Shown one piece after another: positions 608 to 46,428 of a stretch of 64,000 nt of DNA. Every line of letters starts with the position of its first letter. The stretch's first letter is position 1. The translations under genes and the position numbers were made by a program. A model generated the notes under the pieces. The model was given only the letters and a program-made list of their open reading frames with translations. It ran no database searches and had not been told where the DNA came from. Source of the DNA: a virus; IMG/VR virus record IMGVR_UViG_3300032246_002821, positions 32,001 to 96,000 of that record. The stretch is one strand, 5' to 3'.

Positions 608-850
608 TTAAAGTGCAATACCTGCCGTACGCATTTCTTTTAATTTTTTCTGCCAACGCTTCTGGGCACGTGCTTTGGCCTTCTTGCGCTTCTGGCTGGG
701 TGTCTCGAAACGCTCGCGTTCGCGCAACGTCTGGAAGATACCATCGGATTGGATCTGTTTCTTCAATTTACGCAGGGCTTTGTTGACGTCGTTGTTGTGG
801 ACTTCCACGAACAGGCCCTTCTGTTTTAGATCGGTTACTTCAAAGCTCAT
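608..850 (-). CDS. rpsU: Ribosomal protein bS21
   Basis: VEVHNNDVNKALRKLKKQ..GIFQTLRERERFETPSQKRKK is the bS21 signature; start moved to MSFEV (ATG 850) behind GAGGG. Confidence 0.9.
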   Translation of the reverse strand: MSFEVTDLKQKGLFVEVHNNDVNKALRKLKKQIQSDGIFQTLRERERFETPSQKRKKAKARAQKRWQKKLKEMRTAGIAL

Positions 851-1238
851 TTTTTCCCTCTTGGTGCTTCTGGTAATTAGCATATCTTTCGGCCAGCCAA
901 GAATAAAGATCGAATGTCTGTCTGTGCGTGGCTTTGCCTATGGCATTGTCTCCCCAGGCCCACACATTATCTTGTGCCAGCAGATAGCCTTTCAGTATTT
1001 CTTTATTGCCCTGAAAGCGGCAATTTATCAAGCAGGCAGTGGCGTGTTTGGCTGCATTGATGCACCAGACATCGTCGGTCTCTTTGCTGCCATACAAGAA
1101 AACGGTCACGGGTTCAGGCATGGTTTTCACTATCTGACTGAAACGTTCCACATCCGACCATTCGCAATCCACTAGTAATATCTTGAAACGATTGCTCAGG
1201 TCCATATCAGGTACGGTTACTATCCTGCTTTCATCCAT
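840..1238 (-). CDS. Hypothetical protein
   Basis: 132-aa ORF overlapping both neighbours in an operon-like arrangement. Confidence 0.7.
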   Translation of the reverse strand: MDESRIVTVPDMDLSNRFKILLVDCEWSDVERFSQIVKTMPEPVTVFLYGSKETDDVWCINAAKHATACLINCRFQGNKEILKGYLLAQDNVWAWGDNAIGKATHRQTFDLYSWLAERYANYQKHQEGKNEL

Positions 1239-5282: not shown

Positions 5283-5581
5283 CACCCACCTGCAAACGCC
5301 ATAGTGATCAGTGCAAGTTCTAGGTCGTCTCTTACATATATACGCATTTTGCCGTATTCGCTCTCCCAGCACCAGACGTTGGGCAAGTTTCTCCTCAGAT
5401 GTAATTCACAAGCTGGCCCCCATTGCTGCCAACACCAGACACGCATATCACTGAATAGCTCTGCTTTGGTGTTATTTGCTTGGGCAGTGAACTTGATGAA
5501 AGGCTCTACCATGAATTTGAAATTTTCGCAGCCGTTGTACCTGCGGTCTAGTTTAGTAACCTTGTAATTACCTATCTGCAT
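5282..5581 (-). CDS. Hypothetical phage protein
   Basis: Start MQIGN behind GAGG; Trp-rich WCWQQWGP..WCWESE. Confidence 0.7.
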   Translation of the reverse strand: MQIGNYKVTKLDRRYNGCENFKFMVEPFIKFTAQANNTKAELFSDMRVWCWQQWGPACELHLRRNLPNVWCWESEYGKMRIYVRDDLELALITMAFAGG

Positions 5582-5915
5582 ACCATACTTCCTCGATGCT
5601 AAATCCACCATAATAGCCGTTGTGCTCGTTGTGGTTTACCAGTGTGATGAAACCTGAGTCAGTCTGGATTTCCAAGAACTGTGTGTCGTGTACATCATAA
5701 CCATTTTCGTCGCTCACATCAGGACCGTCCTTGACTTCGTAGCACATGAATCTGCTACCAATCAGCTGTCGCACATCATCGTCTGTGCTCATGTAACGAT
5801 TTTCGCAGCAGCACTGACCGTTGTCACGCAATGTCAACTTGCCAAAGTCAAACTTCAAGGTGATGCTGTCTTCATCTACCTCTGCATCACGGATGATCAT
5901 ACCTTTAAGCTGCAT
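5568..5915 (-). CDS. Hypothetical phage protein (CCE.RY / NEHNGYYGGF motifs)
   Basis: ORF coupled to the upstream gene; acidic, with QCCCENRY and HNEHNGYYGGF. Confidence 0.7.
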   Translation of the reverse strand: MQLKGMIIRDAEVDEDSITLKFDFGKLTLRDNGQCCCENRYMSTDDDVRQLIGSRFMCYEVKDGPDVSDENGYDVHDTQFLEIQTDSGFITLVNHNEHNGYYGGFSIEEVWYADR

Positions 5916-6270
5916 TTTCCAAAACCTGTCTGATATGTTTGCAGTCCCGGCGGAAGCCATAACCTGGGCAAGTGCAGGAGCGTTGTTTGCCGTCTATGGT
6001 CACACTGTAGGTGCTGCCTTTGCTGCCTGTGACGATGTGTACACGCTGGCTCACGGCAATGGGTGGCACGGTGTAATCTTCACTGCACTCTTCGATCCAT
6101 TCCGCTGGAATGATGTGCAGGCCCTTGTGGTCCACAATGCACACTGCACCAGGCTCAGCCCACTTGGGAGCAGGCACACGCTCTCCGCGGTACTCATGAA
6201 ACTCACGCACCACCCCACGAGCATATAGATGACGCTTGGGCCACTTGGGATCACGAACCTTGACGTACAT
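5905..6270 (-). CDS. SWIM zinc-finger protein
   Basis: C-terminal YSVTIDG..SCTCPGYGFRRDCKHI (CxC...CxH); start MYVKV behind AAGGAG. Confidence 0.8.
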   Translation of the reverse strand: MYVKVRDPKWPKRHLYARGVVREFHEYRGERVPAPKWAEPGAVCIVDHKGLHIIPAEWIEECSEDYTVPPIAVSQRVHIVTGSKGSTYSVTIDGKQRSCTCPGYGFRRDCKHIRQVLENAA

Positions 6271-6391
6271 CTGTATGCTCCTTGTTAACTCGTTTGCGGT
6301 TGTAGCTGCCAGCACCCTTGCGAGCAACGACGATGCGCTGGCGATACTTGCGATCCGCCAATGCTTTTGCCTGTATGCTACGCTGTTTCAT
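6251..6391 (-). CDS. arfA: ArfA-like alternative ribosome-rescue factor (46 aa, absent from the ORF track)
   Basis: Manual translation MKQRSIQAKALADRKYRQRIVVARKGAGSYNRKRVNKEHTDVRQGS* aligns without gaps to the E. coli ArfA core [23 protein letters not shown]; AGGAG RBS and a sigma70-type promoter directly upstream. Confidence 0.8.
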   Translation of the reverse strand: MKQRSIQAKALADRKYRQRIVVARKGAGSYNRKRVNKEHTDVRQGS

Positions 6392-6417
6392 CACTCGCTC
6401 CTGGGCTCTATATATTC

Positions 6418-6445
6418 AATATAGCACACAAAGACCATCTGTCAA
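6418..6445 (-). promoter_or_regulatory. Sigma70-type promoter TTGACA-N16-TATATT for the arfA-like gene
   Basis: Read directly; has TGn extended -10. Confidence 0.75.
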
Positions 6446-6460
6446 CCACAAAAAGAAAGA

Positions 6461-6486
6461 TCTCCCGCAGATCAATCTGCGGGAGA
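6461..6486 (-). terminator. Intrinsic terminator
   Basis: tctcccgcag-atcaat-ctgcgggaga 10-bp stem followed on the minus strand by a T-rich tract. Confidence 0.8.
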
Positions 6487-6505
6487 CCACAATCATCAAG
6501 CTGTA

Positions 6506-6784
6506 TCAAGCAGCCTGTTCGACCTTCTGGGCAACTGCTTCAGCAGTGACCTGGGCCCGGGTATTCTGCGACAAGAACTTCTCGCGCATCGTGGCCTGCT
6601 TGGTTGCATTACCGATGTAAACTGCGGCATCTTGCTTGGTCATTGGCTGCGGCAACACCTGGATGTCGATGTCAGTCTTGCCTTCACGAGCCAAGATCTT
6701 GGCATAATCGGCGCGGTTGGTGGCGCGGAAAACAACAGAACCATCGGTTTCACGAGCAGTACCAGCGTATGTAAAAGTCTTCAT
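6506..6784 (-). CDS. Hypothetical early protein
   Basis: 92-aa ORF with GGAG RBS, bracketed by its own promoter and terminator. Confidence 0.75.
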   Translation of the reverse strand: MKTFTYAGTARETDGSVVFRATNRADYAKILAREGKTDIDIQVLPQPMTKQDAAVYIGNATKQATMREKFLSQNTRAQVTAEAVAQKVEQAA

Positions 6785-6837
6785 TGTAGATCTCCGTAGA
6801 GTTGAGGGTTAAAAGTTCAAGTCCAAATTACATTATC

Positions 6838-6865
6838 ATATTAACACGGTCTAAGACCGTGTCAA
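6838..6865 (-). promoter_or_regulatory. Sigma70-type promoter TTGACA-N16-TAATAT with a palindromic spacer
   Basis: Spacer region holds the perfect inverted repeat acacggtc-taa-gaccgtgt. Confidence 0.7.
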
Positions 6866-6874
6866 CACTTTTTT

Positions 6875-7222
6875 TCAGTCCAAACGGCTGGCGGCATAAG
6901 CCTTGAAGCCGTATTTCTTCAGCACTGCGGCAGCAGCCACAGCACCAGCTTCCTTGCAGTCGATGCTCTGTCCGGGCCACTTGGCTGGGTCCCAGATCTG
7001 ATAAGCAGGACCACCAAAGCCAGGCCTAAAACCCATCTCCTTGAGCTGGGCCCGTTCAGCCTTGCCCAATTTGGTATTGCCCTTGTTTGCTGGGTAAACT
7101 TCCACCCAGGCAAAGCCACATGCACCACCATCACGACCTTCATAACGCTCGTCTGCCCGTTGTTTGGCAGCGTATTGAGCGGCAATGGTCATTTCAGTAA
7201 CAACAGCTTGCGTATTCAACAT
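6875..7222 (-). CDS. Hypothetical phage protein (CGFAWV ... KEAGA ... SRLD)
   Basis: ORF with GGAG RBS downstream of the promoter at 7251-7278. Confidence 0.75.
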   Translation of the reverse strand: MLNTQAVVTEMTIAAQYAAKQRADERYEGRDGGACGFAWVEVYPANKGNTKLGKAERAQLKEMGFRPGFGGPAYQIWDPAKWPGQSIDCKEAGAVAAAAVLKKYGFKAYAASRLD

Positions 7223-7250
7223 GTGCATCTCCATCATCAACTTATAACTC

Positions 7251-7278
7251 AATATAACACGGCTTTATCAGGTGTCAA
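7251..7278 (-). promoter_or_regulatory. Sigma70-type promoter TTGACA-N16-TATATT
   Basis: Read directly. Confidence 0.75.
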
Positions 7279-7409
7279 CCATTAATTTGCTGAACGGTGC
7301 ATTTATTTCCAGTAACTTCTTCGTAGAACATCACTTCTTCCATCAGGTTACCCAGATCAGCGTTGCGGCAAATTTCACGACCATTGTGGTTGTATGCTAC
7401 CCAAATCAT
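7275..7409 (-). CDS. Small hypothetical protein (44 aa, absent from the ORF track)
   Basis: MIWVAYNHNGREICRNADLGNLMEEVMFYEEVTGNKCTVQQING*; AGGAG RBS, promoter 30 nt upstream. Confidence 0.65.
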   Translation of the reverse strand: MIWVAYNHNGREICRNADLGNLMEEVMFYEEVTGNKCTVQQING

Positions 7410-7439
7410 AGTGTGCTCCTTTGCTTCAACTTATACCCC

Positions 7440-7467
7440 AATATAGCACGTGATCTGATGGTGTCAA
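7440..7467 (-). promoter_or_regulatory. Sigma70-type promoter TTGACA-N16-TATATT
   Basis: Read directly. Confidence 0.75.
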
Positions 7468-7547: not shown

Positions 7548-10500
7548 TCAGAAGCGCCAGTCTAGACCTATCATACCAGTTGTGTTGGTATAGTGGTTGC
7601 CTCTTGCATAACTGATGCTGGCATTCACGCTGATGTCATCAGTCAGCTTCTCCTTGACAGTGGCTTTGATACTCTTGACATTACCAAAGTCCTTGGTCTG
7701 TGTGCTACGAGCTTCAACAGCAACATTGTCGTTGAACTCATATCTCAAACCTACATAGGGATTGGCTTGGATAGTGGTCTTGGCTGCTGGTGCAGTTGCT
7801 AACAGAGCATTACTGTCCCAGGCATTTGACACACTGCTGCGGACAACTGTTACACCAGCCAGTGGACGGAATCCCCACAGTGTATCAGCTGCATAAACAG
7901 TTAGATCACCATAAGTGTTGGTCTGTGCTGCTTTGCTTACACCACCGAAACCTATGTCTTGTAGACTGGTCTGTGTGGTGTAAACACCCTTGCTCATGCC
8001 CAATGTGCCTTTGATCCAAACATAGTCTTGCTTGGATAGAAGATAGATAGCACCAGCATAGGTGTCGCCGCTTGTGCGAGTGTTGACAAATCCAGCACTC
8101 TCACTGTTGCTAGCACGGAAAGCAAAACCAGTAGTGTTGTTCTCCGCAGTCTGTTGCCAGCCACCTGAAAAATTCTTGCTGTTCATGCGACCAGTTGTAG
8201 TAGTACGATCAAAGCTGGGAGTGATCCAAGCACCGTCTTTTGTGCTGAGAGCATCAACGATGAACGGATTGGTTCTGTTGGCTTTCATCACATCTGACAT
8301 AGCACCCACATTGGCTGTACGTGTAGTAACATATGGATTAGCCACTACCTGTGTACCAGTCACAGTGTTGGTTGATACTTGGTTACTGATAGTAGTCGTG
8401 CTAGCCACACTATTACTTGTACTAGTTGACTGTGTAGTTGAACCATTGCTAGTGACAGTTGACCCATCGCTGTAGGTTGTTACAGTAGTAGGGGTAGTAT
8501 CAGTTACAGTTGTCACTGGAGTAGTATTTGTAACAACGGTAGTTATTGGAGTAGTTGTAGTGATCACTGTGCTGAACGGTGTGCTGGTTGTTATAGTAAC
8601 AGTTCTAGTTACTACTAGATTGCTGCCCTGTCGCTGTCCAGCAAATGCTGATCCTGTAGTGATGGTTGGTGTCCCAGTTGTGATATTAGCAACCTGCACA
8701 GGAGTACCTGGTGTGCTGGTAGTGGTTGTAACTGTTGTACCATTTGTTGATGTTGTTGTTACAACTGGATTACCTGGAGCAGTTCCTGTTATATAAACAC
8801 TTGGTCTCCATTCGACACTTACTAGATTATTGTTCTGTGTAAGTGTCCAGTTCACACCAGCTACTGTACCGCTTGTTGTGACAAACGCACCAGTGATACT
8901 GCCGCTGGCATTGATCACATTCACATAAGGACTGTTCAGTACTACATTAGTCGATGTGTTACCCACTATCTGTGGAGTATATGTGGCATTTGTTCCCAAT
9001 GTCAACATACCATTTACAGTCAATTGACCATAAGCAACACCATTGAACCAAGTAGTGATATTGCCATTGCTGGTCATATCACCGTTTACCACAGTGTTAG
9101 CACCCGCACCAATCGCAAGTGTTCCATTGTTAGTAACAGTTACGGCATTGATACCAACGCCCAGGTTGTCAGTTAATGTGCTGCCTGTGTTGATGTTCAC
9201 TGCCGATAATGGTTGGAAAGTAAACGCTCTTGGGAAGTTGCCATATGTGCCTGAGGGTGCACCTGTGTTAGCAGGATCGCCTAAGTTGCCAGCAAGTGTA
9301 GTTGTTGCTGTGGTAGCATTAGTTCCAATGTTTACCACTGCGGTGCTGTCAGTTGTGCGAACTGCACCAGCAACTGAACCAGTTCCTAGTTGATTAAGCA
9401 CACCATTAGTTGATAACTGGACATCACCAGTGATAGTTCCGGCATTGTTGATAATCGCTCCAGTGTTTGTACCTAGATTGATTATGGCTATACCGCTGTT
9501 GCCAGTGATAGTGCCTGTAGCATTATTGTTGATAGTGCTGCCTGCTGTGGTGTTGATAAAGTCTACACCAACATCGCCAGTGATGCTGCCATTGTTATTA
9601 ATCGTAGCATTATTGCCCATAAGTACTGCTGGCATACTATTAGTGCCAGTTGGTGTGCTAGTGATGCTACCGTCGTTGTTTAGTACTGTATTACCATATC
9701 CCATCATAACAACACCGTCGCCATTAGTAACTGCGATAGTACCAGTTGCTGTGTTATTAACTGTCGCTGTGCCTGTGCTGCCGGTGCCATTGAAACTAGT
9801 TACGATGCCGTGTGCTGAATAGCCATTGCCCAGCAGTGTGTTACCGCTAGTGTTAGCAGTGATATCGCCGCTGTTTGTCACTGTGATGTTGCTAGTAGTA
9901 TTAGTACCCTGCTGAGCATTGATGCCAGTGCCGTTGTCTGTAGTGATAGTTCCAGCATTAGTGATAGTGGTTGTGCCAGCATTTGTACTATTGATACCAT
10001 TGCTGTTAGCACCTGTGACGTTAATCGTACCGTTGTTTGTGATGGTACCATCTGTAGGCTGTCCTAATGTAAAGGTAGTAGTTGTACCTGTGGGATTAGT
10101 GCTGGTTGTAGCAGCAGGAGCACCGTTGGGATTGTTTGTGCTCATTGTGCTGTTATAACCACCAGCAGTTCCGCTAGTTGTACCACCAGTTGCACTTGGT
10201 CCGCCACCGTTCTGGTTGGCTACCAGACCTACTGTGCTCTGTCCTGGTGTACCGCTGCTGTTGACGATACAGGCATTGCTACCGCCCCAAGCACCCTGAC
10301 AAGCACCAAAGCCTGGGCTGCTTGTCCAACCCTGTGCCGTGATGCCATTGTAAGGACCAAACTCTGGATTGTACAGCCTGTTGTTGCCAGCACCGTTCAC
10401 TGTCAGTGTGGGCGCACGATACCAAGGACCGTAATCTCCTGCCCAATATGAACCGTCGATACCATACATGCTGACCTTGGCATAGGCCACCGTCGCTGCC

Positions 10501-10889
10501 TGTGCTTGAGTCAATGTCTTGCTGATGGCCAGTGTGGTCCAGGGCACAGCGGGATCGATCTGCGGATTGCCGCCCAGTGCATTAGGGTTAGGCAAGTTGT
10601 TGCTGAAGCTGGTGTTAGCACTGGTAACCAGTGCATTACCACTGGTGAAGAACTCGATCTTTACGTTAGCAGTGTCTGATTGTCCTGCACGGCCGCCACC
10701 GTTATGTGCCAGGACACTAAAGTCGAAAGTACCACCCTGTTGCATAGTGCTGTCGAACACCACGAACTGGCTGATGGTAGTAGTCACATAAGCTGTGGCT
10801 ATACTGTTGTAAACTTGCTGTGCTGATGCTTCTCCGGCTACAAATAAGCCAGCAATCAAAGCACAGGCTTTGATTAGATTCTTAATCAC
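7548..10889 (-). CDS. Autotransporter-like adhesin: signal peptide, lectin-like N-domain, Asn/Thr/Gly beta-helix repeats, Thr-rich stalk, C-terminal beta-barrel
   Basis: Signal peptide ending AGEASA-QQ, repeated ITNxGTI units, alternating hydrophobic C-terminal strands ending ...MIGLDWRF; GTG start behind GGAGAG. Confidence 0.75.
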   Translation of the reverse strand: MIKNLIKACALIAGLFVAGEASAQQVYNSIATAYVTTTISQFVVFDSTMQQGGTFDFSVLAHNGGGRAGQSDTANVKIEFFTSGNALVTSANTSFSNNLPNPNALGGNPQIDPAVPWTTLAISKTLTQAQAATVAYAKVSMYGIDGSYWAGDYGPWYRAPTLTVNGAGNNRLYNPEFGPYNGITAQGWTSSPGFGACQGAWGGSNACIVNSSGTPGQSTVGLVANQNGGGPSATGGTTSGTAGGYNSTMSTNNPNGAPAATTSTNPTGTTTTFTLGQPTDGTITNNGTINVTGANSNGINSTNAGTTTITNAGTITTDNGTGINAQQGTNTTSNITVTNSGDITANTSGNTLLGNGYSAHGIVTSFNGTGSTGTATVNNTATGTIAVTNGDGVVMMGYGNTVLNNDGSITSTPTGTNSMPAVLMGNNATINNNGSITGDVGVDFINTTAGSTINNNATGTITGNSGIAIINLGTNTGAIINNAGTITGDVQLSTNGVLNQLGTGSVAGAVRTTDSTAVVNIGTNATTATTTLAGNLGDPANTGAPSGTYGNFPRAFTFQPLSAVNINTGSTLTDNLGVGINAVTVTNNGTLAIGAGANTVVNGDMTSNGNITTWFNGVAYGQLTVNGMLTLGTNATYTPQIVGNTSTNVVLNSPYVNVINASGSITGAFVTTSGTVAGVNWTLTQNNNLVSVEWRPSVYITGTAPGNPVVTTTSTNGTTVTTTTSTPGTPVQVANITTGTPTITTGSAFAGQRQGSNLVVTRTVTITTSTPFSTVITTTTPITTVVTNTTPVTTVTDTTPTTVTTYSDGSTVTSNGSTTQSTSTSNSVASTTTISNQVSTNTVTGTQVVANPYVTTRTANVGAMSDVMKANRTNPFIVDALSTKDGAWITPSFDRTTTTGRMNSKNFSGGWQQTAENNTTGFAFRASNSESAGFVNTRTSGDTYAGAIYLLSKQDYVWIKGTLGMSKGVYTTQTSLQDIGFGGVSKAAQTNTYGDLTVYAADTLWGFRPLAGVTVVRSSVSNAWDSNALLATAPAAKTTIQANPYVGLRYEFNDNVAVEARSTQTKDFGNVKSIKATVKEKLTDDISVNASISYARGNHYTNTTGMIGLDWRF

Positions 10890-10970
10890 AATTCTCTCCA
10901 AAATAATTGATTTTGTCGAGTTTTTCTTTTACTTTAGATTGAATCGTTGATTAAAAATGAATGTTGTTGA

Positions 10971-12114: not shown

Positions 12115-12410
12115 AGTGGCCCGTTCTGTTGCCGGGTGGAGCCATACCCCTGGTGGTTACGCTGCTAGAGCGAACTCCTGAGTAGCAAAGTTATCGTTTG
12201 CATTTGTCATTTTGCTTTCTGTCTCAGCTGGTCTTTATCACACCTGTCGATCCTATTTCGCCCCCATCAAAGATACACTGACTCGAAACAGTGCCGGCCA
12301 GTCACCTATCAGTTAGTGGTGTGCTATCCAGTGTATCTATGGTGGAGGCGCCGGAGTACTGCCCTCCGGGTCCAGTGAGTTTATTCCACTTCGCCTCAAC
12401 GACATAAGCA
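12115..12410 (-). ncRNA. ssrA: Two-piece (circularly permuted) alphaproteobacterial-type tmRNA
   Basis: Acceptor piece ends GGACCCGGAG-GGCAGTA-CTCCGG-CGCCTCC-ACCA at 12340. The intervening segment 12339-12266 is closed by the 10-bp stem agatacactg/cagtgtatct. The coding piece starts GGGGGCGAAATAGGATCGAC at 12265 (G3-U70 pair). Tag frame 12201-12157 reads ANDNFATQEFALAA*. Outer ends are approximate. Confidence 0.93.
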
Positions 12411-12413
12411 TAT

Positions 12414-12421
12414 TATTTATA
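12414..12421 (-). promoter_or_regulatory. T4-type late promoter TATAAATA in front of the tmRNA
   Basis: Exact TATAAATA a few nt upstream of the inferred tmRNA precursor 5' end. Confidence 0.65.
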
Positions 12422-12440
12422 GCATTAAATGTGTAGTATG

Positions 12441-15400
12441 TCAACTATTTCTGGGCGATACATCAAATTGACCGTCGGGCCCTGAACCGCCCCAACCAGT
12501 TGTTTCGTTTCTGTCCATTCCAGTTTTCATTGTTTTGAGTATGGCCTGGAATTGGTTACGTATCTTGTCCAGCAAAGGAGCCAACACCTGGCTTCCCAAC
12601 AATGTGGTGCCCAATGCATCCACATTGGATGGTGTCACTTGGCTGAGCATCTCCAACATACCATATACCATCTGATCTGTCAGGAAGGGATTATCATATT
12701 TGGTTGTACCGATGCTGCCGTATAGGATTTTATTACACAGGCTCAGCATCGTGCCCACGAACATCTCATTATTGGTCAGTAATAACCCTTTTTCGTCTAT
12801 GGTGGCAAACAGGTTCTGGCTACGGTTCAGTCCCACCACATAGCACTTGTTACCGATGACCAGTGTATTACGGCCTACAACTTGGCTCAACACATCCATA
12901 CCTATGGTTTTCTTTACCTGCTCGCTGGTGTTGGCCCATTGTATGTCGTAATATGCTTCGTCGGCCTGTGCAGGCAACATATGAGCAGGATCGTTTCCGC
13001 TGTTGATCAATGCTGTATTTCTCAACTGTATATAGATGTCATCTGGATTTTGTGGTGCAGGAGGATCCAACAACACATCAGGCACTATGGGCATTTCGCC
13101 ATTGTAAACAGTCTGGGCGAAACCATAGGGATCATTGTAATATTTGCTCCTGGGCAGATCGAATCGACCTGTGTCTATACCCAGCTCTGTCAATAATTCT
13201 TTGTTTTTACCCTGACGCATAGCTGCTTTTATGCTGTCTCCCCAGATGTCATCGGTGGCAACTCGTTCGAGGAAATGTCCCATTTCTCCATAACCCATAT
13301 TCATTCCGTGATAGGGCAGCTGGCTTGCGAACACGAATGCGTTGGTGGGGTTCTGATCCAGTCCATCTGTGTTGAAATGATCTATACCGAAAGTCTTGCT
13401 CATATGGTTTTCTTTAAGCAACTGAGCACAACTGGCCAAATGCGCTGCTTCGCTGGCAGCAAGCAGTTTTTTCAATGTGGGATCAGTCGTGTTTTTTATC
13501 ACAGTCAGCTGTGCTTCCACATAAGGGATGAAATCTGTAAGACAAGCGTCCAGACTGGTATAAACTATACCATCATAAGGGGTGGTGCCGAAATCGTGGA
13601 TCACTGGCAGACCAGTTGCACCCAGCGGCACTGCATTGCCATCAGCATCTGTGACATTGCTCAGATATTGAGTGCTGGTGCTGGTATCTCCAGTGATGGG
13701 ATTGGTTATAGTTTTGGTTGGCAGTGTACCTGTCAAACCTCCTGTCAAACTGTTGCTGACATCCGCTGCGTTCACCACTTTTGTCAGTTTATTAGTGGGA
13801 GCACCAGCCCAGGGCACACTCACTTTAGGTGTGATAACGATAGTGTCCACATTAGTGCTGCCAGCTGGAGGTGTGCCTCCACCTGATACACTTGTTCCGT
13901 CAGGAGCAGGTACATTATAGAGACCGTTTATTATGTTGTGCATGATATTCAATCTGCGTTGAAGTTCCTGCCCATCAGTGGTGGCCATCACCGCATCATT
14001 GGCCGCGATGATATGTGGCAGAGTGTCGTTATGCACATAACCAGCACAAGTACCCATGAAATCTGCCATAGTTATTTCGCCTATGGTACCGCCACCGAAA
14101 CCATATGTGCTCTGTATCTCGTCTACGGCAGGCTGATAGTATGGCGTGCTCATCTGGCTCACGTGGTTCAGATCCAGGCCAGGATCCACTTTGCTCAACA
14201 CCATACCCACCTGTTGGAAATTTTCAGCTCTGGTGATGCCCAGGCTCATGAAGTGTTCGCCCAGTTCTTTGAAGTTATTGTGCGGACTGCTCTGGCTCAT
14301 ATTGGGCATCATGGTCTTGTAATCTGTCAGCTGTCCCAGATGTGTAACAGGTGTGCTCACATTGAAATGGCTGCTGACACTAGCCACTGCTGTGGGATCG
14401 CTGATCTGTGTCAGCACATTCTGCACACTCTTGTCGTACCTGGGATCATCCACGCCTGCCAGAGGCACACCAGCTGTGACCAATTTGGTAGTGAGACCTG
14501 TCTTGGTTCCCAGACCAGCATTGAGTATCTGATTGGCCACGTTGCCAGGTTGCATAAGCCTGGTGGGATTACTGGTGCTGAATGTGCCCATATTCAGCAT
14601 ATCAGTGCTGGCGCCAGCAAGATTCCTGGTTAGACTGGTCACTCCATAACTTAGCACATCATTCATATTGCGGAAATTGGCCCCCAACGCACCAGGACCT
14701 TGGGTACCGAATTTTGCCGCACTGGCTTCACTAGCTGCGCCCACCATCTGATTGGCTATGCCGCTATAAGCGTTGGATACGCCCAGATTGTTCATCATTG
14801 CATTGAGGCCGCCGCCCACTGCACCCCCCACCATATTATTGGCCACGTTCTTGATCATACCCTGGAGTCCACCATTGGCCGCGAACTGCTGCATCACGTT
14901 GGGCAGATTCATGGGATTTTGCATTATTGCATTGAGGGGCGCCATCAGTTGTCCCAGTGCTCCATTGATAGCACCATTTGCGATGCCAGCCAGCTGTGGT
15001 GGCAACACTCCTGTGAGGCTGGGTAGTATGCTACCGCCCAGTTGGCTTATCTGTTGCATTATGGGGCCAGTGATGCTGCTCATAGCACTGCCCAATGCTC
15101 CCTGAGCGAATCCACCCAGGCCCTGCCCGCTCATTATGCCGCTGATGCCGCCCTGCAAGGCACCCTTCATCATATCGCCAGCCACACCTGTGATCCCAGC
15201 TGCTCCCAGCGCATTGGTCAACTGGCTGGTCAGTCCATTGGTTGCCATTCCCAGTGCGTTCTGTAATCCAGCTGCGCTCATGAGACTGGCGGGATTCATC
15301 CCGCTGCTGGCACAGCCAGCACCTCCCGCGCCTGGTGCGCCGGGCATACCAGGAGGACCTCCTGCTGCACCAGCAGGTGGTTTGGCATTGGGATCTATGT

Positions 15401-43895: not shown

Positions 43896-43923
43896 AATAT
43901 ACAGCCTTTTTACAAAGTGTCAA
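43896..43923 (-). promoter_or_regulatory. Sigma70-type promoter TTGACA-N16-TATATT
   Basis: Upstream of the ATPase, back-to-back with a plus-strand TAAATA at 43927-43932. Confidence 0.7.
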
Positions 43924-46280: not shown

Positions 46281-46428
46281 TTTCTTTTCCTTTTGGTTTT
46301 TATAACACCCTGTTAATATACTAAGTTTGTACAGGGTTGTCAACAATTACTTGAATTTAATTCATTGTTGATCTAGTAGCAATTTATTTATGCTTTTCAA
46401 ATCCGTTGTGCGTGTTTGCGACGCAACA

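Follow-up and report, generated by a model that had tools for sequence, protein, structure and literature searches.

A 46-codon open reading frame (ORF) on the minus strand of a jumbo-phage genome fragment encodes a short relative of the ribosome-rescue factor ArfA, referred to here as mini-ArfA. The gene is real and conserved, it is homologous to ArfA, it ends in an ordinary stop codon, and it is driven by a promoter. We put the chances at slightly better than even that its product carries out RF2-dependent rescue of non-stop ribosomes without tmRNA control; from the sequence features described below we infer ribosome binding, the recruitment and activation of RF2, the timing of expression and a benefit to the phage. 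Throughout, the window is the whole 64,000-nucleotide stretch of DNA that was analysed, taken from an IMG/VR record of 182,953 bp (about 47% G+C, estimated to be 54% complete).

The features of the mini-ArfA locus, in window coordinates, are as follows.

6251..6391, minus strand: coding sequence of mini-ArfA; the ATG is at 6391, and 46 codons are followed by TGA at 6253-6251 (Pfam PF03889, 27.2 bits).
6397..6401, minus strand: ribosome-binding site (RBS) AGGAG; CAGGAG is invariant in relatives.
6418..6445, minus strand: sigma-70-type promoter TTGACA-N16-(TG)-TATATT, with elements invariant in five related contigs.
6459..6488, minus strand: intrinsic terminator with a 13-bp stem, a 4-nt loop and a T run, directly upstream of the promoter, which ends the preceding unit.
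5905..6270, minus strand: SWIM zinc-finger gene, encoding 121 aa counted from its ATG at 6270 (Pfam SWIM, 24 bits against a cut-off of 19.6).
5568..5960, minus strand: gene for a DUF7448 protein, third of a conserved trio, exact start uncertain (Pfam DUF7448, E 3.8e-12).
6219..6280, minus strand: possible hairpin around the SWIM RBS and ATG and the mini-ArfA stop, weakly supported (stem z values below).

The ORF and its expression signals had been proposed by a first-pass annotation, and each was found in place. The 46-codon frame runs from 6391 to 6251, the AGGAG at 6401-6397 lies 6 nt 5' of the ATG, and the promoter consists of TTGACA at 6445-6440 and TATATT at 6423-6418, separated by a 16-nt spacer with an extended TG. 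A longer N-terminus is ruled out by an in-frame TGA in the -10 region, nine codons before the ATG; a GTG one codon upstream was rejected as a start because it is too near the RBS. N-terminally extended homologues of 64-66 aa were set aside as gene-caller artefacts, in which the extension is merely translated promoter region.

Exact copies of the promoter pattern number five in the window, where 0.05 would be expected. At 6418-7467 on the minus strand, four small genes are each preceded by a strong promoter of a shared type (TTGACA, 16 nt, TG, and either TATATT or TAATAT), and two further exact copies are found at 43896-43923 and 46315-46343. The mini-ArfA gene is located behind a sigma-70-type promoter and within this array of small genes. 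At its other end, the RBS and start codon of the SWIM gene fall within the 3' end of the mini-ArfA ORF (overlap of 20 nt), and given this nesting the two genes are probably translationally coupled.

Comparison with related contigs shows that mini-ArfA is a genuine gene under purifying selection. Over codons 1-34, all 11 differences between the window and contig L023 are synonymous (dS about 0.75), as are all 6 between the window and L005. The -35, extended -10 and -10 elements, the RBS and the ATG are unchanged across the five related contigs, and the DNA 5' of the -35 element is unrelated. The gene order ArfA-SWIM-DUF7448, with overlapping ends, is kept in L023-L026, four contigs that differ from one another in their upstream neighbours. 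Public metagenomes hold 12 clusters of close homologues of the protein, at 74-100% identity. The final three codons of the window ORF (Q-G-S) are missing from relatives, and a CAA/TAA difference near the end of mini-ArfA is synonymous in the overlapping SWIM frame.

The relation to ArfA had been recognised from an ungapped alignment with 12 of 23 residues identical, and this figure was reproduced against MG1655 arfA; the identical positions, in E. coli ArfA numbering, are L20, D22, R26-Q27-R28, K34-G35, G37-S38-Y39 and R41-K42. The profile search suggested as a check was also run. Pfam PF03889 matches the window protein at 27.2 bits (E 2.7e-6), 1.7 bits above its cut-off of 25.5, and the match is confined to positions 18-41 of the 44-position profile; on the same profile E. 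coli ArfA reaches 89.5 bits, over positions 2-43. When all six frames of the entire 183-kb record were searched, mini-ArfA was the sole PF03889 match (E 3.3e-6).

The single-sequence search of the PDB with mini-ArfA gave a weak result (E about 0.1). The profile of its clade retrieved ArfA chains with E 4.4e-8 and nothing else significant, and a profile of 96 short relatives matched only E. coli ArfA (E 9e-13), aligning without gaps to residues 12-48. Individually, 95 of these 96 relatives match PF03889. Weak matches to DUF7230, a family of mini-proteins borne by phages, were found in five of the 96, which suggests that the two families adjoin; the window protein has no match to DUF7230 at E <= 1 and falls directly in PF03889. 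No NCBIfam model matches mini-ArfA, and its sole match in PHROGs is phrog_20887, of unknown function. Overall, the profile comparisons identify mini-ArfA as a true homologue of the ArfA family. The description of the gene as unannotated was too broad: the ORF is absent from the ORF track and the word holds for that track alone, as an identical protein is public with PF03889 precomputed and JGI calls two close homologues ArfA.

A very short, lysine/arginine-rich frame whose Pfam score is barely above the cut-off might be thought a chance ORF, or a basic peptide unrelated to ribosome rescue. We regard the probability of this as negligible, since the changes between contigs are synonymous in 11 cases and non-synonymous in none, the promoter, RBS and gene order are all conserved, and the profile searches match ArfA alone (E 9e-13). 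The substitution pattern and the profile match together bring this explanation close to refutation.

In E. coli ArfA, the basic tail occupies the empty mRNA channel, the Q27-E30 strand extends the RF2 beta-sheet, F25 fits the V198/F217 pocket, the L19/L24 hydrophobic patch contacts RF2 W319, and the A18T mutant binds RF2 but fails to activate it. In mini-ArfA, the KGKGSY.RK tail motif reads K25-G26-A27-G28-S29-Y30-N31-R32-K33, and its K, G, G, S and R are invariant across the alignment. Directly before the tail, Y16 and R17-Q18-R19-I20-V21 align with ArfA F25 and R26-Q27-R28-V29-E30.

The conservation of individual positions was evaluated over 137 cluster representatives. Asn occupies the N14 position in 81%, an Ala is found in 95%, L20 is Leu in 91%, F25 is Tyr or Phe in 86%, R28 is Arg or Lys in 91%, V29 is Ile or Val in 87%, and the E30 position is Val in 89%. 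F25, R28, V29 and L20 are ArfA residues that touch RF2 in E. coli (PMC5378476, PMC8012679). The segment before the tail is conserved as strongly as the tail, which points to a constrained protein contact and not merely a basic plug. The putative partner is available, as RF2 from four alphaproteobacterial genomes keeps the ArfA-contact residues V198, F217 and W319; the RF1 paralogues of the same four genomes keep neither F217 nor W319.

Eleven residues precede K12 in E. coli ArfA and only two precede the equivalent position in mini-ArfA, which lacks ArfA residues 1-11, the fold-back part of the N-terminal minidomain; this trimming had been overlooked in the first-pass annotation. All viral relatives match PF03889 only from about position 12-23, whereas E. 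coli ArfA matches from position 2. In E. coli, the minidomain (residues 1-14; I11 on A18; T7/K8 on h44) folds with RF2 opening (PMC5378476), and its ordering is coupled to that opening (PMC5378476, PMC8012679). In the hydrophobic patch, L19 is replaced by A10 and L24 by K15, so that two of three patch residues are non-hydrophobic in mini-ArfA, and P23 is replaced by R14; the short family as a whole has K in 36% and L in 23% at the L24 position. The residue at the A18 position depends on the alignment: it is K9 in the ungapped register, with the 95%-conserved Ala at E17, and A8 in the HMMER pairwise alignment, which has one gap.

These deviations permit a different role, in which the protein would be a non-activating plug of the mRNA channel that may hold RF2 closed like ArfA(A18T), and would block tmRNA-SmpB or ArfB or keep phage nascent chains untagged. 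Such a plug would agree with the loss or alteration of residues 1-11, L19 and L24, all linked in E. coli to the opening of RF2 (PMC5378476, PMC8012679), and with the tail motif being the most conserved part of the protein. We nevertheless consider it distinctly unlikely: the aromatic at the F25 position and the strand are conserved equally with the tail and would not be needed by a simple plug, the tmRNA carried by the phage argues that the phage favours rescue, the phage would lose translation capacity if ribosomes were locked on dead mRNAs, and the chromosomal copies of SAR11-like bacteria described below are unlikely to be inhibitors.

The same missing minidomain would also fit a rescue factor with another partner or mode, acting with RF1 as well as RF2 or activating RF2 without a minidomain. 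The small size and stop-terminated gene recall ArfT (40 aa, RF1 or RF2; PMC6299226), and this explanation, though unlikely, deserves some weight. Against it, mini-ArfA, unlike ArfT, keeps the RQR(I/V) strand and an aromatic where ArfA has F25, and the kept residues suit an RF2-specific pocket that is present in alphaproteobacterial RF2 and absent in RF1.

The reading we prefer, RF2-dependent rescue, has the absence of residues 1-11, the exchanges to A10, K15 and R14, the partial Pfam match just above the cut-off, and helicase relatives that include Pseudomonas phages counting against it. It is favoured by the PF03889 score above the cut-off, by family profiles that match only ArfA in the PDB, by the constraint on the RF2-contact segment and not on the tail alone, and by the RF2 contact residues kept in Alphaproteobacteria. 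Precedents point in the same direction, namely the 40-aa, stop-terminated and RF-dependent ArfT (PMC6299226) and gp30 of phage HTVC027P, which is transcribed during SAR11 infection (PMC12753301), as does the presence of tmRNA and bS21 in the same phage.

Canonical arfA is expressed as a non-stop mRNA, generated by an internal terminator or an RNase III hairpin, and is repressed by tmRNA (PMC8012679, PMC6299226). As the first-pass annotation had stated, mini-ArfA has its own stop codon: the TGA is genuine, it falls inside the overlap with the SWIM gene, and there is neither an internal terminator within the ORF nor a conserved hairpin. The further claim that the protein is already trimmed to the active length with a real stop is correct for the C-terminal end and the stop and incomplete for the N-terminus, which is trimmed as well. 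The 43-46 residues align to ArfA positions 10-52/55, mature ArfA has 52-55 aa (PMC6299226), and mini-ArfA ends where mature truncated E. coli ArfA ends. The real stop is not peculiar to this copy, since it is the rule in short ArfA relatives, including the SAR11-like chromosomal genes.

Folding of the 218-nt mini-ArfA mRNA revealed no significantly unusual structure (z = -1.64). In L005 a stem of 18 bp spans the mini-ArfA stop (z = -3.15); the window copy contains one mismatch (z = -1.5), and in L023-L026 the same stem is degraded (z = -0.7) via synonymous changes in either gene and with no compensatory changes. This stem over the mini-ArfA stop and SWIM start may at most be a translational-coupling element.

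Control of the arfA kind would require, for example, an RNase III-type cut of this hairpin, giving a non-stop message under tmRNA. The 18-bp stem that encloses the stop in L005, and the slightly weaker one in the window, are what could be expected in that case. We think it quite improbable, as the stem decays in L023-L026 without compensation, the window mRNA folds are not significant by either z value, most family members are short and stop-terminated in varied contexts, and coupling to SWIM translation explains the stem equally well. An ordinary stop inside a continuing mRNA implies that the peptide would be released normally, with no tmRNA tag, and it is reasonable to suppose that mini-ArfA escapes tmRNA control.

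The replicative helicase of the phage has its nearest relatives, at 48-51% identity, in the jumbo phages PA5oct (Pseudomonas), Atu_ph07 (Agrobacterium) and Phosso (Sinorhizobium), and the record belongs to a jumbo phage. Two further genes of the window concern translation:

12115..12448, minus strand: alpha-type two-piece (permuted) tmRNA (Rfam RF01849, 135.5 bits against a cut-off of 50; RF04321, 95.2 bits).
608-883, minus strand: phage-encoded ribosomal protein bS21 (PF01165, 62.5 bits).

RF01849 is the Alphaproteobacteria tmRNA model and RF04321 the permuted-tmRNA model; ARAGORN did not report the tmRNA at 12115-12448. A portion of this tmRNA is similar to a stretch of phage Phosso. The two-piece tmRNA of alpha type supports an alphaproteobacterial host, which we infer to be the probable one, although the closest helicase matches also include Pseudomonas phages. 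The tmRNA gene lies on the same strand as mini-ArfA, 5.7 kb apart. Upstream of it, in TTGACA-N17-TATAAATA, a sigma-70-type promoter coincides with a T4-late-like motif, and expression may not be exclusively late. No SmpB or release-factor genes were found in the available part of the record, which is about 54% complete. With both a tmRNA and bS21, this phage appears to invest in translation. Between mini-ArfA and the tmRNA, at 7548-10901 on the minus strand, a Thr/Ser/Asn/Gly-rich ORF of 1117 aa, whose start resembles a signal peptide and which matches no Pfam family at E <= 1e-4, may encode a surface or autotransporter-like phage protein.

In the textbook view, ArfA is confined to beta- and gammaproteobacteria. 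An exhaustive profile search retrieved 695 representative clusters at E <= 1e-3; the best 149 of these have a median length of 49 aa, with 99 at 55 aa or shorter and a minority carrying long hydrophobic C-terminal extensions, as in canonical ArfA. Seventeen IMG/VR loci carry relatives of 37-52 aa, and all 17 end in a stop codon. Three more representatives lie on contigs of 45-170 kb, in arrays of small genes without family matches. On one of these, L057 (1657-5123), a phage-like contig in the 45-114-kb range, a 40-aa ArfA relative is found about 0.8 kb downstream of RNA ligase and RtcB, a neighbourhood that hints that RNA repair and ribosome rescue are connected. Judged from these profile searches and the chromosomal copies below, mini-ArfA is one member of a large family of ArfA relatives of 35-55 residues, both phage-borne and chromosomal in SAR11-like bacteria.

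A scan of bacterial species genomes with clade-specific patterns gave no member of the window's own clade. The wider, hand-made pattern QRIV-x3-KG-x-GSY gave 8 loci in bacterial genomes, with copies in two gammaproteobacteria (long form), one Acetobacteraceae MAG and one Pelagibacteraceae single-cell genome. In the Acetobacteraceae MAG (L032, 6800-8000, minus strand), the ArfA-like ORF is directly downstream of integrase-like and HigA-like genes, and a second ArfA-like copy is present elsewhere in the genome.

Among sampled Alphaproteobacteria, PF03889 matches were found in 10 of 401 genomes, 8 of them above the cut-off; the 401 include the seed G001, chosen for carrying the gene, so that 9 of 400 is the count among those drawn. 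Four small, low-G+C SAR11-like genomes (L036, L038, L043 and L044) carry chromosomal, stop-terminated ArfA relatives of 35-40 aa, and the genes around them are conserved too, encoding a PfkB kinase, a photolyase-related protein and a response regulator. A survey based on nhmmer reported arfA in 0 of 2,376 Alphaproteobacteria (PMC11633108), and the SAR11-like copies, as identified by profile match, are at odds with this absence.

Comparison of the region with isolated phages by megablast gave no match, and tblastn gave four weak matches in one search and the self-match only in another; because tblastn is insensitive for short basic queries, the isolated-phage counts are lower bounds. Roseobacter phage CRP-212 (MZ892988) has an unannotated ArfA-like ORF of 41 aa (L002, 2001-2123, plus strand), nested out of frame in the 3' end of gp38, an annotated gene of 3.6 kb. 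The gp63 of Pelagibacter phage HTVC034P (41 aa, 'hypothetical') also clears the ArfA cut-off. In four contigs, L017 (2737-3105) and identically L018-L020, an ArfA-like frame has no nearby in-frame start, and a short ORF, ATG AAG CGC AAA AAG TAA, lies just upstream, offset by one base. A -1 slip on C_AAA_AAG at the stop would yield MKRKK-VNPFAAEL..., a typical N-terminus of the family. The arrangement could reflect programmed frameshifting, or the frame could be fused to a longer protein.

If RF2-dependent rescue is correct, mini-ArfA would be a translated early gene of the jumbo phage, transcribed by host RNA polymerase from the strong sigma-70-type promoter as the first cistron of its operon. 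Of ArfA (residues about 12-55), the protein would retain the short helix, the strand that contacts RF2 and the basic tail. On ribosomes that have stalled at the 3' end of a broken mRNA, its KG.GSY.RK tail would enter the vacant mRNA channel, and Y16 with the R-Q-R-I-V segment would dock host RF2, leading to peptidyl-tRNA hydrolysis. The outcome would be an always-on rescue route beside the phage tmRNA, in a host class mostly without ArfA.

A wider reading can be put forward tentatively, with less than even confidence. Short stop-terminated ArfAs may form a large undescribed branch, present on SAR11-like chromosomes and in many phages, and in this phage an early mini-ArfA and the phage tmRNA may constitute a two-route rescue kit that keeps ribosomes free during mRNA destruction, whether by phage host shut-off or by RNA-cutting host defences, with mini-ArfA acting without tmRNA control and without the minidomain presumed necessary for RF2 opening. 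If mini-ArfA is active, ArfA-type rescue would not need the N-terminal minidomain, and the non-stop/tmRNA feedback would be an optional regulatory layer and not part of the mechanism. Hosts that depend on tmRNA and ArfB would then receive a constitutive rescue factor from phages, and the stated distribution of ArfA would have to be revised (0 of 2,376 in PMC11633108 versus 10 of 401 here, seed included). The short family would also offer a scaffold of 35-46 residues for the study of RF2 activation.

The closest known system is ArfA (YhdL; Pfam PF03889) of E. coli and other gamma- and betaproteobacteria, with structures 5MDV, 5MGP, 5U4I, 5H5U and 7OJ0. Mini-ArfA shares with it the KG.GSY.RK channel tail, the R-Q-R-(V/I) strand and the aromatic at the F25 position. 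It differs in being stop-terminated within a polycistronic mRNA, whereas ArfA is made from a non-stop mRNA, in lacking the hydrophobic C-terminal extension, and in being borne by a phage with a probable alphaproteobacterial host. BrfA, a small rescue factor of Bacillus subtilis, depends on RF2 and is translated from a non-stop mRNA (PMC6881298); set beside mini-ArfA by description only, it lies outside PF03889, in contrast to mini-ArfA.

The annotation of ArfA in phages is already known from two published cases: gp10 of Citromicrobium phage vB_CbaS-RXM (OL963731) was annotated as ArfA (PMC8953757), and gp30 of pelagiphage HTVC027P is an ArfA-domain gene transcribed early and late in SAR11 infection (PMC12753301). 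Like mini-ArfA, both are short and of the PF03889 type, and both belong to phages of Alphaproteobacteria. RXM gp10 has 39% identity with the window protein and shares its motifs; at 60 aa it has a longer tail. The lineages also differ, RXM being a siphovirus, HTVC027P a podovirus and the phage of the window a jumbo phage. Each of the two papers (PMC8953757, PMC12753301) gives a one-line ArfA annotation and does not discuss the stop codon, truncation, regulation or host distribution, and our literature search found no functional study.

ArfT of Francisella tularensis has 40 aa, an ordinary stop and a basic tail, and works with RF1 or RF2; where ArfA has F25 it carries no hydrophobic residue, and it is regarded as independent of ArfA (PMC6299226). 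Compared by published description only, ArfT and mini-ArfA are alike in size, in their stop-terminated genes and in having no non-stop-mRNA control; unlike ArfT, mini-ArfA is a clear ArfA homologue.
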